In this document: in pieces, positions 2,845 through 28,342 of the stretch | Layout of the letters: every line of letters begins with the position of its first letter | Position numbering within the stretch: the stretch's first letter is position 1 | Assembly (NCBI RefSeq): GCF_001677475.2 | Contig: NZ_CP015229.1 | Strand: one strand, 5' to 3' | Origin: Escherichia coli | Lineage (GTDB): Bacteria; Pseudomonadota; Gammaproteobacteria; Enterobacterales; Enterobacteriaceae | Length of the DNA stretch: 64,000 nt | Notes under the pieces: generated by a model | The model's input: only the letters and a program-made list of their open reading frames with translations | Told to the model about the DNA's origin: nothing | Database searches by the model: none | Position numbers and translations under genes: made by a program

Positions 2845-2890
2845 AAACCCATAATTACAGAAAATAATTATGGGTTTGTTATTTATTTTA
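2845..2890 (+). terminator. Intrinsic terminator downstream of entF
   Basis: Perfect 13-bp inverted repeat aaacccataatta / taattatgggttt with 7-nt loop, followed by a T-rich tract. Confidence 0.6.
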
Positions 2891-3044
2891 TTTATAAGTT
2901 TAGTGGTTATTTCTCTTAAATAGAATGAATGTTGCATTCAGTGGAAGGAATTTACAAACTTCAGCTTCGGATAATTCTCACCAACTGGTAAAGTGAGCGC
3001 CGTGGAGATTTTCCCCTATTGGACTCATTTTCAGGTTATACCCC

Positions 3045-4178
3045 ATGTCATCACTGAATATTAAACAGGGAAGTGACGCTCATTTTCCTGAGTATCCTCT
3101 GGCGTCGCCCAGTAATAATGAAATTGATTTACTTAATCTAATCGAAGTTTTATGGCGGGCCAAAAAAACGGTCATGGCGGTCGTTTTTGCATTTGCCTGC
3201 GCAGGTTTACTGATCTCTTTCATCCTGCCGCAAAAATGGACCAGCTCAGCCGTTATTACTCCCGCCGAAGCCATTCAGTGGCAGGACCTGGAGAAAACCT
3301 TTACCAAACTCCGCGTTCTTGATCTCGATGTTAATATCGACCGTGGCGGTGCATTTAACCTGTTTATCAAGAAGTTTCAGTCGGTTAGCTTGCTGGAAGA
3401 GTACCTACGTTCATCACCTTATGTGATGGACCAATTAAAAGAGGCGAAAATCGACGAACTGGATTTGCATCGCGCAATTGTCGCATTGAGCGAAAAAATG
3501 AAAGCGGTTGATGACAATGCCAGTAAGAAAAAAGATGAACCGTCACTGTATACCTCCTGGACGCTAACTTTTACCGCACCAACCAGTGAAGAAGCGAAGA
3601 CCGTTTTGAGCGGGTATATCGATTATATCTCTGCGTTGGTGGTGAAAGAGTCGATAGAAAACGTCCGTAATAAACTGGAGATCAAAACCCAGTTTGAAAA
3701 AGAAAAACTGGCTCAGGATCGCATTAAAACGAAAAATCAACTTGATGCAAACATTCAGCGCCTCAATTATTCACTCGACATTGCCAACGCGGCAGGAATT
3801 AAAAAGCCCGTATACAGTAATGGTCAGGCCGTTAAAGATGACCCCGATTTCTCTATTTCTCTCGGCGCAGACGGTATTGAACGCAAACTGGAAATTGAAA
3901 AAGCGGTCACTGACGTTGCGGAACTGAACGGTGAATTACGTAATCGTCAGTATCTTGTTGAGCAGTTAACAAAAGCAAATATCAACGATGTGAATTTTAC
4001 GCCATTTAAATATCAGTTAAGCCCGTCATTGCCAGTGAAAAAAGACGGTCCGGGTAAGGCGATTATTGTGATCCTTTCCGCGTTGATCGGCGGAATGGTG
4101 GCTTGTGGTGGCGTGCTGTTGCGCCATGCGATGGCATCCAGAAAACAGGATGCCATGATGGCAGACCACTTAGTTTAA
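3045..4178 (+). CDS. fepE: Polysaccharide co-polymerase (Wzz-like chain-length regulator)
   Basis: 377-aa ORF with N- and C-terminal hydrophobic segments flanking a long coiled periplasmic region; position between entF and fepC. Confidence 0.9.
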   Translation: MSSLNIKQGSDAHFPEYPLASPSNNEIDLLNLIEVLWRAKKTVMAVVFAFACAGLLISFILPQKWTSSAVITPAEAIQWQDLEKTFTKLRVLDLDVNIDRGGAFNLFIKKFQSVSLLEEYLRSSPYVMDQLKEAKIDELDLHRAIVALSEKMKAVDDNASKKKDEPSLYTSWTLTFTAPTSEEAKTVLSGYIDYISALVVKESIENVRNKLEIKTQFEKEKLAQDRIKTKNQLDANIQRLNYSLDIANAAGIKKPVYSNGQAVKDDPDFSISLGADGIERKLEIEKAVTDVAELNGELRNRQYLVEQLTKANINDVNFTPFKYQLSPSLPVKKDGPGKAIIVILSALIGGMVACGGVLLRHAMASRKQDAMMADHLV

Positions 4179-4990
4179 ATATTTGCGGTTGAAGGTGCCG
4201 TTCGTCCGAGCGGCACCACGAGCGGCGTTCCGGCTACCGGATCGTCAATTATCATGCAGCGCAGACCATAAATGCGCTCGATCAATTCAGCAGTGACAAT
4301 CTCCTTCGGCGCTCCCTGAGCAATAATTTTCCCTTCCCGCAATGCAATCAAATGGCTGGCGTAACGACAGGCCTGGTTAAGATCGTGCAGCACTGCCGCC
4401 AGGGTATAGCCTTTCTCACGGTTCAGTTCGCTCAACAGTTCCAGTAGATCAATCTGATGACTGATATCCAGCCAGGTCGTTGGTTCGTCGAGCAGCATAA
4501 TTGCCGTTTCCTGGGCCAGCACCATCGCGATCCACGCTCGCTGGCGTTGTCCACCAGAAAGGGTATCCACGCTTTGATTTGCCAGATGAGTTATTCCCGT
4601 GGCCTGCATCGCTTTCGTTACCGCTTCTTCATCTTCTTTGCGCCAGCGGGTAAACAGCGGTTGATGCGGGTAACGTCCACGCGCCACCAGCTCCTGCACG
4701 GTGATATCGCCCGGCGTGGTAGCATTTTGCGCCAACAGACCAATCCGGCGTGCAACCTCTTTACTGGCGTAATGTTGAATGTGCTCACCATCCAGCCAGA
4801 CATGCCCGTGAGCAGGCGTCATCAGGCGGCTTAAAGTACGCAGTAAAGTGGATTTACCGCAGCCATTTGGCCCGATAATTGCCGTGAAGTGACCATCAGG
4901 TATTTCTACAGTCAGATTTTCCGCAACGGTATATTTGCCATATCCGAGGGTTAACTGTTCGCCGCGCAAACGGGCTACTGATTCGGTCAT
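4175..4990 (-). CDS. fepC: Ferric enterobactin ABC transporter ATP-binding protein
   Basis: ORF-track frame trimmed to internal ATG (MTESV...). Walker A GPNGCGKST, ABC signature LSGGQRQR, Walker B LLDEPT. ATGA overlap with fepG. Confidence 0.93.
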   Translation of the reverse strand: MTESVARLRGEQLTLGYGKYTVAENLTVEIPDGHFTAIIGPNGCGKSTLLRTLSRLMTPAHGHVWLDGEHIQHYASKEVARRIGLLAQNATTPGDITVQELVARGRYPHQPLFTRWRKEDEEAVTKAMQATGITHLANQSVDTLSGGQRQRAWIAMVLAQETAIMLLDEPTTWLDISHQIDLLELLSELNREKGYTLAAVLHDLNQACRYASHLIALREGKIIAQGAPKEIVTAELIERIYGLRCMIIDDPVAGTPLVVPLGRTAPSTANI

Positions 4991-25991: not shown

Positions 25992-26020
25992 GAAGAAGTA
26001 AGATTCACCTGCAATTGCTT

Positions 26021-26053
26021 AGCCGCCGGGGTCAAACCTGGCGGCTTTTTTAT
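26021..26053 (+). terminator. Intrinsic terminator of ahpF
   Basis: agccgcc...ggcggc hairpin followed by a T6 run. Confidence 0.6.
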
Positions 26054-26055
26054 TG

Positions 26056-26096
26056 CAATAAAAAGCCCCGCCGGGATGGCTCCGGGCAGGGCGGGA
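26056..26096 (-). terminator. Intrinsic terminator of uspG (convergent with the ahpF terminator)
   Basis: GC-rich inverted repeat cccgcc...ggcggg followed on the minus strand by a U-run (plus-strand aataaaaag). Confidence 0.5.
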
Positions 26097-26112
26097 TAAA
26101 TACTTTTATCTA

Positions 26113-26541
26113 TTAGCGAACGACCAGCACCGGCAGATTGGCGTGGCGGATAACGCTGGAGGCGTTAGAACCTAACAGATGGGTCGAAATCGATGGGTTG
26201 CGCGAACCGATAACGACAACATCAGCCCCCAGTTCTTCTGCCAACTCATTGACTTCATCCCGCACGCTACCAAAACGGACATGTTGTTTAATGCGGGAAG
26301 GATCGATGGTGAAGTGGCTGACCATCGTTTGCAGACGTTCTTCTGCTTCATGTTGCAGATGCTCTTCAAAACGACGCACATCAGCGGCAAAACGGTGCAG
26401 GCTCAGGCTGGCTGACCCCGGTAGTACGTGAAGTAGATGAATAACTCCGTCATCCTGGGCGAGGAATTCAGCGTGGCGAACAGCTTTGTCGCTCAATTCC
26501 ATTTCGAAAACATCCACTGGCATGATGATTGTTTTGTACAT
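26113..26541 (-). CDS. uspG: Universal stress protein G
   Basis: Trimmed to ATG at 26541 ([10 protein letters not shown]...), which has AGGAGAG upstream; 142 aa UspA fold. Confidence 0.9.
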
Positions 26542-26664
26542 AAGCATTCTCTCCTTGTTTTTGCATGTATACATAACAGCACATTATTGGTTATGAATCT
26601 ATAATTTGCGAGGCTGATTTGATCTGAATTTGCTATTGAGCTGGAAAATAAATAAAACCAGGCG

Positions 26665-26754
26665 CTACCAGCGTTGTTCAAGGTATAGCACTGCAGCAAC
26701 AATAATTGCTGCTATGAATATATAAAATGCAGTGATACCGAGAGCTTCGCTCAT
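26665..26754 (-). CDS. Hypothetical 29-aa hydrophobic small protein (unverified)
   Basis: ATG-to-TAG ORF MSEALGITAFYIFIAAIIVAAVLYLEQRW, one predicted transmembrane helix; weak GGAA upstream. Could be a chance ORF. Confidence 0.15.
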   Translation of the reverse strand: MSEALGITAFYIFIAAIIVAAVLYLEQRW

Positions 26755-26896
26755 ATGAGGTTCCGCAGATGAATAACCAGTTCAGATTAGAATGCTGCGC
26801 TTAAGAGCAAAATGATAAATCTGGTTGATATTTGAGCGGAAAGAGGATGCGAGTGCATCCTCTGGGCAAAGCGAGTTATCGCTTGTGCAGATGGGA

Positions 26897-27307
26897 TTAA
26901 AGCAGGTAGTCGCCAGCAGCTTCTGGCTGGTATTCGAGTTCCAGCACTTCAAGGTGGGTTGCAACGCCGCCCGGAAGTTCCCAGTGAATGGAATCGCCAA
27001 CGCGCAGTCCCAGCAGTGCGGCACCTACCGGAGCCATAACGGAAAGCTGAGTATTGCTATCGGTCATTTTTGCCGGATACACCAGCGTGCGCACACGCAC
27101 TTCGCCATCGCTAAGATTGCGGAATTTAACCCGGCTGTTCATTGTCACCACGTCGTGTGGCATCTGTTCTGGCGAACACATTTGGGCGCGATCCAACTCT
27201 GCGTTTAACGCGTCGGCGATTGGCAAACCAGCATAGGCGGGTTGCTCCAGCAGAATATCGATGCGTTCGGCATCCAGGTCGTTAATGATGATAGTTGGTC
27301 TGGACAT
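26897..27307 (-). CDS. rnk: Regulator of nucleoside diphosphate kinase (GreA/GreB-like)
   Basis: ORF-track TTG-initiated frame trimmed to ATG at 27307 ([10 protein letters not shown]...); 136 aa. Confidence 0.9.
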
Positions 27308-27535
27308 TTTTACTCCATGTCGTCGGTACTGCGAGTGTCGCAGTAAACATACCCAAAAGAAAACCCTCACCGTCAGGCGGCGAGGGTTTAACTCACATGA
27401 TGATACTGACTGTTGCTCACTCTTTGAAGTGATTTGCGTCACATTCAGGGAATTCCTCAATGCAGCGCATTATGTATAATTCTTAATCGTCACGGTTTAT
27501 GGAAGACGAATTAGCGTGTTTTGTAAATCAGATGA

Positions 27536-28342
27536 TTAATAACCCACTTTATCAATCAGAAAGGTTTTGCCACAGTTGCCTGGGTGTGGTTGTGGCAAGA
27601 ATGAGTTTGCAGAAAGCGGAGCGTTGATGGCGTCAGCTTTGATCGAGATCTGAATTTCAGTCAAATACGCAGGGTTACCCTGGCACGTTAGCTTAACTGC
27701 TTTCACGTTCTCTTTTCCCCAGCTTTTGGCAAAGGCGGCATCAAAGTCACGGCGGCTCACTGTTTTACCGTAGTTATCCGCTAGGAATTTTCCGGCTTCG
27801 CTCTCTTTAATTTCTTGATTCAGGCGTACCATCGTGCCGAAGTATGCGTCTGGATCAAAACCAAAGCAGGCACCGTGTTTGGCATATTCGTAGCGTTCCA
27901 GGCAGGAACGTCCGCCAGCTCCTGGCATGACTTCACTTAGTTTAGCGGCCGTTTCCAGTGATAACCCGGTTTCCGGCGATGAACACATTCGGCTGGCGCG
28001 CGCTTCTGGTAGATTCGGGATTGGGCGAGTAGCGCAACCGAAGCGCATCCAGCGGCGTTCATCAACACCACGAGCAGCAACCGATTTAGGCAATCCTGGC
28101 CACAGACCATGTACGGTCAGAAAATCAGCTTTGTTGGTCGTTTCGGTTTGCAGGCGACATTCATCTCGTTCGTTACGATTTCGATCGTGTTGACTCTGGC
28201 AAAATCCGGTTTGCCAGGAGAGGGCCAGGACATAGCGATCAAAATCGCCATACTGTTTTGCCTGCAACGCCACGGCGTTGGCAGAAGAGAAGGGAAGCAG
28301 AGAAACCGCGAGCAACGCGGCGTTACGCCAGAATGCTTTCAT
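27536..28342 (-). CDS. rna: Periplasmic ribonuclease I (RNase T2 family)
   Basis: Trimmed to ATG at 28342 (MKAFWRNAAL...); signal peptide; RNase T2 active-site motifs HGLWP and KHGAC. Confidence 0.93.
   Translation of the reverse strand: MKAFWRNAALLAVSLLPFSSANAVALQAKQYGDFDRYVLALSWQTGFCQSQHDRNRNERDECRLQTETTNKADFLTVHGLWPGLPKSVAARGVDERRWMRFGCATRPIPNLPEARASRMCSSPETGLSLETAAKLSEVMPGAGGRSCLERYEYAKHGACFGFDPDAYFGTMVRLNQEIKESEAGKFLADNYGKTVSRRDFDAAFAKSWGKENVKAVKLTCQGNPAYLTEIQISIKADAINAPLSANSFLPQPHPGNCGKTFLIDKVGY

Follow-up and report, generated by a model that had tools for sequence, protein, structure and literature searches.

The 29-codon open reading frame in the spacer between uspG and rnk of Escherichia coli is yldA, a gene that is already named and annotated in Escherichia. 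It is a real gene and, because its name and annotation precede this analysis, we do not present it as a discovery. The frame lies in a 64,000-nt stretch of E. coli DNA (the window), for which an initial annotation had proposed a candidate small membrane protein and had added that the frame might equally have arisen by chance. Our comparisons establish the identity of the gene, its conservation and synteny, the selection on its peptide and its homology to the small protein YoaI; they settle the doubtful call in favour of a genuine, conserved gene and illustrate that a reading of the sequence alone may suffice to spot a real gene of 29 codons within a spacer. Overall, we consider it very probable that yldA encodes a single-pass inner-membrane paralogue of YoaI that likely binds and tunes a larger inner-membrane protein.

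The frame is present exactly as first described in position, strand, start and stop codons and length (Table 1), and it encodes MSEALGITAFYIFIAAIIVAAVLYLEQRW. Residues 4-25 form an unbroken run of 22 positions that lacks any charged or strongly polar residue (highest Kyte-Doolittle mean over 19 residues, 2.67) and is followed by the tail EQRW; the description of the product as a single predicted helix with a C-terminal tail is therefore accurate. The GGAA reported upstream is also there; it occupies -10 to -7 relative to the ATG (minus strand ...CTGCGGAACCTCAT-ATG), which puts the interval of 6-9 nt originally given for it off by one at most. A purine-rich GGA or GGG lies at about the same distance from the start codon in K-12 (GGGAATAACC-ATG), E. 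albertii (GGAAGCCATT-ATG) and Enterobacter ludwigii (GGGGACGGTC-ATG). The spacer that holds the gene is 355 nt long, and uspG starts 123 nt past the yldA stop codon.

Table 1. Features of the uspG-rnk interval, in window coordinates.
Feature	Position	Strand	Basis
uspG, co-directional downstream neighbour	26113..26541	(-)	annotation of identical DNA; 96% identical to K-12 uspG
Haplotype-specific cassette, 276 bp: yldA, its upstream region and the uspG upstream region	26560..26835	.	blastn breakpoints against K-12
yldA coding sequence, 29 codons and TAG, Escherichia-type allele	26665..26754	(-)	ORF and translation; NF041476; identical annotated DNA
Shine-Dalgarno-like GGAA, 6-nt spacing to ATG	26761..26764	(-)	read from sequence; function inferred
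rnk 3' hairpin, GAGGATGC-ACTC-GCATCCTC then TTTCC	26843..26862	(-)	predicted fold
rnk, co-directional upstream neighbour	26897..27307	(-)	annotation of identical DNA

To identify the gene, we compared the spacer with 5426 complete E. coli genomes by megablast, which returned identical DNA annotated as yldA; in strain SK1144 the product of this identical DNA is called "small membrane protein YldA" (WP_001287361.1). The exact peptide occurs under the same product name on at least 1000 contigs. Against the NCBIfam equivalog model for YldA (NF041476), the window peptide scores 59 bits, above the cutoff of 45, with its residues 1-29 aligned to model positions 1-29. Its score against the local Pfam model PF23689.1 is 22.9 bits, below the gathering threshold of 27, and the representative of its 90% identity cluster (P0076) has a precomputed match to PF23689.3.

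Synthesis of the product of the K-12 allele has been shown by others. The gene is named in the work of VanOrsdel et al. 2018, in which 80 short open reading frames were tagged on the K-12 chromosome, and it is listed there among the "SPs detected in this study" (ybdR/rnk interval, 643330-643419, 29 aa, MAEAFYILIGFLIMAAIIVMAVLYLENHS); detection was by a chromosomal SPA tag at the gene's own locus and immunoblot (PMC6001520). In MG1655 it is annotated as b4734 (YP_009518757.1). The K-12 and window proteins share a length of 29 aa, a place directly downstream of rnk, the RefSeq family name, an M-x-E-A N-terminus, the C-terminal half AAIIVxAVLYLE and an SD-like GGA at equal distance from the ATG. 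They differ in that they are only 52% identical, with the divergence in the helix's N-terminal half and at the last three positions (window EQRW, K-12 ENHS), and the protein-level evidence concerns the K-12 allele, not that of the window. With the gene annotated, its peptide under selection (below) and the K-12 product detected, the reading of the frame as a small membrane protein has held up.

To determine what is being conserved, we compared substitutions between alleles and species, a check that had been proposed with the original call. Window yldA differs from that of E. albertii at six positions, all of them third-position and synonymous (Sd 6, Nd 0). Identity across the frame is 84/90 with no indels; it is 126/146 upstream and 75/95 downstream, with some indels in these flanks. 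Over the greater distance to K-12, synonymous sites are saturated (pS 0.80) and pN is 0.36, and within codons 15-26 pS is 0.90 and pN 0.09; the motif AAIIVxAVLYLE has thus been kept between window and K-12 despite saturation of the synonymous sites around it. This pattern indicates purifying selection on the amino-acid sequence of YldA, beyond the mere maintenance of an open frame. All 23 family members that we aligned, from Escherichia, Citrobacter, Enterobacter and Huaxiibacter, are 29 aa long, and the columns I7, I17, V19, A21, V22, L23, Y24, L25 and E26 are invariant among them; window YldA has every one. Stops or frameshifts in homologous spacers had been named as evidence that would tell against the gene, and what is found is a frame of 29 codons with an ATG in E. 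albertii, a strain of an Escherichia clade (MOD1), K-12 and Enterobacter, the exceptions being one Citrobacter copy and one E. coli copy; this check thus speaks for the gene.

The first of these exceptions, in Citrobacter farmeri (4109-4198 of the excerpt L009), has ATA at the start position where every other member has ATG, and it is annotated as a 65-residue, upstream-extended open reading frame; it may use another start codon, be decaying or contain a sequencing error. The second, in E. coli HS-02 (601-716 of L011), has two single-base insertions within the frame and a deletion that removes its 3' end and most of the spacer to uspG. This copy, which could be a pseudogene or an assembly error, is the sole damaged one among 40 records sampled evenly from genomes with the window allele. 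Together, the two suggest that yldA is dispensable at least occasionally, unless they are assembly errors.

The gene is a single-copy core gene with a fixed position in the core genome. Its place is directly behind rnk, with both genes on one strand, at every locus that we examined (window, SK1144, K-12, O145, E. albertii, MOD1 clade, C. farmeri, E. ludwigii), and this order is kept both with and without a neighbouring ybdR. Among 5426 complete E. coli genomes, 1817 have the window type of yldA and 3605 the K-12 type, so that one or the other is found in 5422. In the ranking of the 1817 window-allele genomes, only three best matches fall in the 90-95% identity band, and yldA is annotated in 39 of the 40 records sampled evenly down it. 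The family appears narrow, because a profile search of 1.84 billion representative proteins gave only 58 matches at E<=0.001, and the 22 of these that we retrieved are all YldA-like save one YoaI orthologue. The genera named among the database matches suggest, and no more than suggest, that yldA is absent from Salmonella and Klebsiella; a scan of contigs with N-terminal peptide patterns, which were too allele-specific, recovered three Escherichia loci only.

Profile comparison identifies YldA as a paralogue of YoaI (b1788, 34 aa, PhoB-regulated). The NCBIfam YoaI model NF041475 aligns with window YldA in full register at 30 bits (E 4e-7) without reaching its cutoff of 45; it matches both YldA alleles at this sub-cutoff level, and K-12 YoaI in turn matches the YldA model in the same register. 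Six shuffled versions and one reversed version of YldA and two unrelated hydrophobic small proteins matched neither model at E<=10, so the similarity, which extends over about 26 mostly hydrophobic residues, is real and at the level of paralogues. By hhalign, YldA 3-28 align with YoaI 8-33 at a probability of 86.8%, and BLASTP of the single sequences finds no match, the relationship being visible to profile methods only. A YoaI orthologue of Cedecea davisae bridges the two families: it has the core MNDPAFFDTLCITAVFLVIASALVMSVLYLERRW, ends in SVLYLERRW and scores 68.9 bits against the YoaI model and 38.4 against the YldA model, and its gene lies where yoaI is expected, flanked by yeaL and yeaK homologues. 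For every YoaI protein in the large database there is a precomputed match to PF23689 ("YldA-like"), so Pfam already unites YldA and YoaI. Since yldA and yoaI coexist in Escherichia, Citrobacter and Enterobacter, including at least one Citrobacter strain, they are paralogues, not orthologues.

The two proteins have much in common. Both consist of a single helix of the same length that aligns in register, with an acidic residue before the helix and [A/S]-V-L-x-[L/I]-E at its end, followed by a three-residue tail, and precomputed matches place both in PF23689. They differ in five extra N-terminal residues of YoaI that YldA lacks and in the location of their genes, yoaI lying between yeaK and yeaL and yldA between rnk and uspG. 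Vellappan et al. showed by two-hybrid assay that EnvZ is a binding partner of YoaI, and that YoaI activates EnvZ-OmpR reporters. They further found S26, V27 and E31 of YoaI to be invariant; replacing the glutamate (E31A or E31Q) abolishes EnvZ binding as well as activation and leaves membrane levels unaffected (PMC11429745). In our alignment, A21-V22-L23-Y24-L25-E26 of YldA correspond to S26-V27-L28-L29-I30-E31 of YoaI; the three invariant YoaI residues therefore align with A21, V22 and E26, each invariant across the YldA family, and the glutamate essential for the action on EnvZ is matched by E26.

Based on these correspondences, we propose how YldA may act. Residues 4-25 would form a membrane helix, with the MSE N-terminus probably in the periplasm and the E26-Q-R-W tail probably in the cytoplasm; membrane insertion in this N-out/C-in topology is the part of the model that we hold with the greatest confidence. 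YldA would then dock on a larger inner-membrane protein and tune it, using as its docking surface the invariant half of the helix nearer the cytoplasm together with the juxtamembrane glutamate (A-I-I-V-x-A-V-L-Y-L-E). In agreement with such a surface, this half is fixed between the two E. coli alleles, whose differences are concentrated in the helix's N-terminal half and the final three residues. Because the paralogue YoaI activates EnvZ through the glutamate that aligns with E26, we think it reasonably likely that YldA works by binding and modulating a larger membrane protein. The partner would most plausibly be a histidine kinase, although the conserved glutamate alone does not fix its identity, and the assignment to a sensor kinase, drawn from homology, is tentative. 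A search of the accessible literature found no experiment on the function, localisation, topology or partners of YldA, nor on toxicity upon its overexpression, and the main text of a study of about 150 E. coli small proteins under magnesium starvation makes no mention of it.

Many characterised small membrane proteins of E. coli bind transporters or respiratory complexes. Like AcrZ, KdpF, MgtS or CydX, YldA could be a membrane-embedded accessory subunit in a transporter or an enzyme complex, and not a regulator of a kinase, a possibility that we regard as less likely than not yet worth keeping in view. It would fit what is generally known of this class of protein, and YldA is tied to a kinase solely through its homology to YoaI. 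Against it, the sole characterised homologue acts on a histidine kinase via a residue that is invariant in YldA, and no gene for a transporter or complex travels with yldA, whose neighbours are rnk and either uspG or ybdR.

YoaI links two-component systems via a glutamate that YldA keeps invariant, which makes the modulator model a direct and cheap hypothesis. In addition, the two deeply diverged yldA alleles, present in E. coli at about 1:2, amount to a natural experiment on which residues matter. In its most specific and rather speculative form, which we think improbable, YldA would be a second connector of the YoaI type that docks on EnvZ or another kinase via its AVLYLE end, and the two alleles would be functionally distinct. 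If so, different E. coli lineages would be wired differently for stress signalling: the yldA alleles diverge in the tail and in the half of the helix nearer the periplasm, one goes with ybdR and the other without it, and the sequences upstream of uspG that accompany them are unrelated.

The type I toxins TisB, ZorO, ShoB and DinQ are similar in size to YldA and likewise consist of a single hydrophobic helix with a short polar tail. The initial annotation had described the architecture as typical of small membrane proteins and of such toxins alike; the architecture does fit both, but the reading as a toxin is not supported. As a type I toxin, YldA would depolarise the membrane and its translation would normally be blocked by an antisense RNA. 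Besides its 29 aa, one hydrophobic helix and polar tail, such a role could draw on the growth delay caused by overexpression of the paralogue YoaI (PMC11429745) and on the convergent overlap of the ybdR and yldA transcripts in K-12, where the pair is given as a convergent excludon (PMC12288877). However, ybdR is absent from the window haplotype, so this overlap cannot exist here, and the frame is equally conserved. At E<=1 YldA matches the NCBIfam families YldA and YoaI and three weak, unrelated ones (SpoIIQ, a flagellin subfamily and YtzI), and no type I toxin family, though the library contains such models. Rfam finds no small RNA in or beside yldA, the rnk leader being its only match in 26000-27600, a result to be read with the caveat that a missing consensus match does not prove an RNA absent; nor did a consensus scan find a promoter-like site on the opposite strand. 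Unlike type I loci, which are usually patchy and multi-copy, yldA is a single-copy gene at a fixed position in 5422 of 5426 genomes and in four genera, and tagged K-12 YldA was detected from its own chromosomal locus. We therefore judge a toxin function very unlikely.

The spacer had been described as one from which a larger gene appeared to be missing, and comparison with K-12 confirms this: the missing gene is ybdR, and its absence is a natural cassette polymorphism. When the window is aligned to K-12 by blastn, similarity breaks at 26559/26560 and 26835/26836 between flanks that are 98-99% identical. The K-12 counterpart of the 276-bp window cassette is 1611 bp long (2886-4496 of the K-12 excerpt L008) and contains ybdR and the K-12-type yldA, with ybdR between uspG and yldA; yldA is thus present in both cassettes, between which E. 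coli is split at about 1:2. In K-12, yldA is linked to and convergent with ybdR, whereas in the window, which lacks ybdR, yldA is followed by uspG. E. albertii and the Escherichia clade strain (MOD1) share the window arrangement and allele, and the 90% cluster of the window peptide includes E. marmotae proteins. The K-12 form of YldA, by comparison, resembles Citrobacter proteins. ybdR is present in K-12, O145 and Enterobacter ludwigii and absent from the window, E. albertii, the MOD1 clade and Citrobacter farmeri; a strict linkage of the K-12-type allele to ybdR, which we had considered, is wrong, as C. farmeri has a K-12-like allele without ybdR. Because the yldA alleles are saturated at synonymous sites while the flanks are nearly identical, the two cassettes point to an ancient polymorphism or to replacement between species.

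The cassettes also differ in the region upstream of uspG (26542-26664 in the window), its presumed promoter, where no similarity between them can be detected. The K-12 version has a homologue in C. farmeri (local alignment score 45, shuffle maximum 25), and the window version matches neither of these. As these upstream regions are unrelated, uspG may be regulated differently in different E. coli lineages. In K-12, both paralogous small genes are convergent with, and almost abut the stop codon of, a larger gene: the gap is 0 nt for yeaK-yoaI (yoaI at 10079-10183 of L007) and 3 nt for ybdR-yldA (yldA at 4331-4420 of L008). This arrangement, absent from the window haplotype, is possibly a coincidence.

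Several sequence features bear on the transcription of yldA. The hairpin at the 3' end of rnk is terminator-like with a weak T tract and lies just on the rnk side of the cassette boundary; its stem is conserved in six loci and its loop is variable, and it fails the T-run rule of our terminator scan. The same consensus scan, which covers promoters and terminators, detected nothing promoter-like upstream of yldA and no terminator between yldA and uspG. Two candidates picked by hand as a yldA promoter, TTGCTC-N15-TAATCT and the sigma-S-like TCTAATCT, were unconvincing and were dropped. As no promoter candidate was convincing, yldA may be transcribed from a weak promoter of its own or by read-through of the weak rnk terminator, and in this haplotype it may share a transcript with uspG. 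We also considered a fold in which UUCCGC after the rnk hairpin pairs with GCGGAA and hides the ribosome-binding site, but another pairing partner is predicted in K-12, E. albertii, Citrobacter and Enterobacter, so this is not a conserved structure. As to conditions of expression, K-12 yldA mRNA belongs to a 100-gene cluster that anaerobic cells induce in response to fluoride and that also holds envelope and osmotic stress genes, phoPQ and rstAB (PMC10100675), a weak clue; in the supplement of an acid-stress ribosome-profiling study yldA is entered only as a 'previously known sORF', and we extracted no clear regulation from it. Upstream of rnk lies the Enterobacteria rnk leader (Rfam RF01771; 27352-27460 on the minus strand, 124.9 bits against a gathering score of 50), which contains a strong terminator-like hairpin at 27389-27361.

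This layout raises the idea that the act of translating yldA matters and the peptide does not, for example if yldA were an upstream open reading frame that couples rnk read-through to uspG 123 nt downstream. All three genes run in one direction here, the stretch from yldA to uspG yielded no terminator-like site, and the T tract of the rnk hairpin is poor, all of which would allow such coupling. It is nevertheless highly improbable, since the substitution pattern indicates selection on the amino-acid sequence and not just on the open frame, and since in K-12-type strains and in Enterobacter the convergent ybdR separates yldA from uspG and yldA is equally conserved.

Finally, the notion that the frame is a chance one or translational noise with a functionless peptide, which could appeal to the several other 20-70-codon open reading frames on both strands of the spacer, to a length not above chance expectation, to a weak ribosome-binding site (GGAA) with no predicted promoter and to expression data confined to the K-12 allele, is scarcely credible when all six differences from E. 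albertii are synonymous and the frame is free of indels found in its flanks, when frame, length and the 12-residue motif survive synonymous saturation between alleles and genera, when the protein of the K-12 orthologue has been detected and when damaged copies, at one in 40 evenly sampled records, are not widespread. The suggestion that the frame "may equally be" a chance one is accordingly set aside in favour of yldA as a gene for a conserved peptide.

Two oddities in database annotation concern the length of this gene. Some genomes, such as that of O145:H28 RM12581 (2835-3023 of L002), annotate yldA with 62 residues (MHSHPL...), taking as start codon an ATG that lies within the loop of the rnk terminator hairpin; the window has this ATG too, but there it opens only a 23-codon frame in another register (26787-26858, minus strand). 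The 62-residue form looks like an annotation artefact that occurs where this ATG happens to be in frame. A few database entries (P0154, P0156) join rnk and yldA in one open reading frame of 139-169 residues, and these are most likely frameshifted assemblies and no real fusions.
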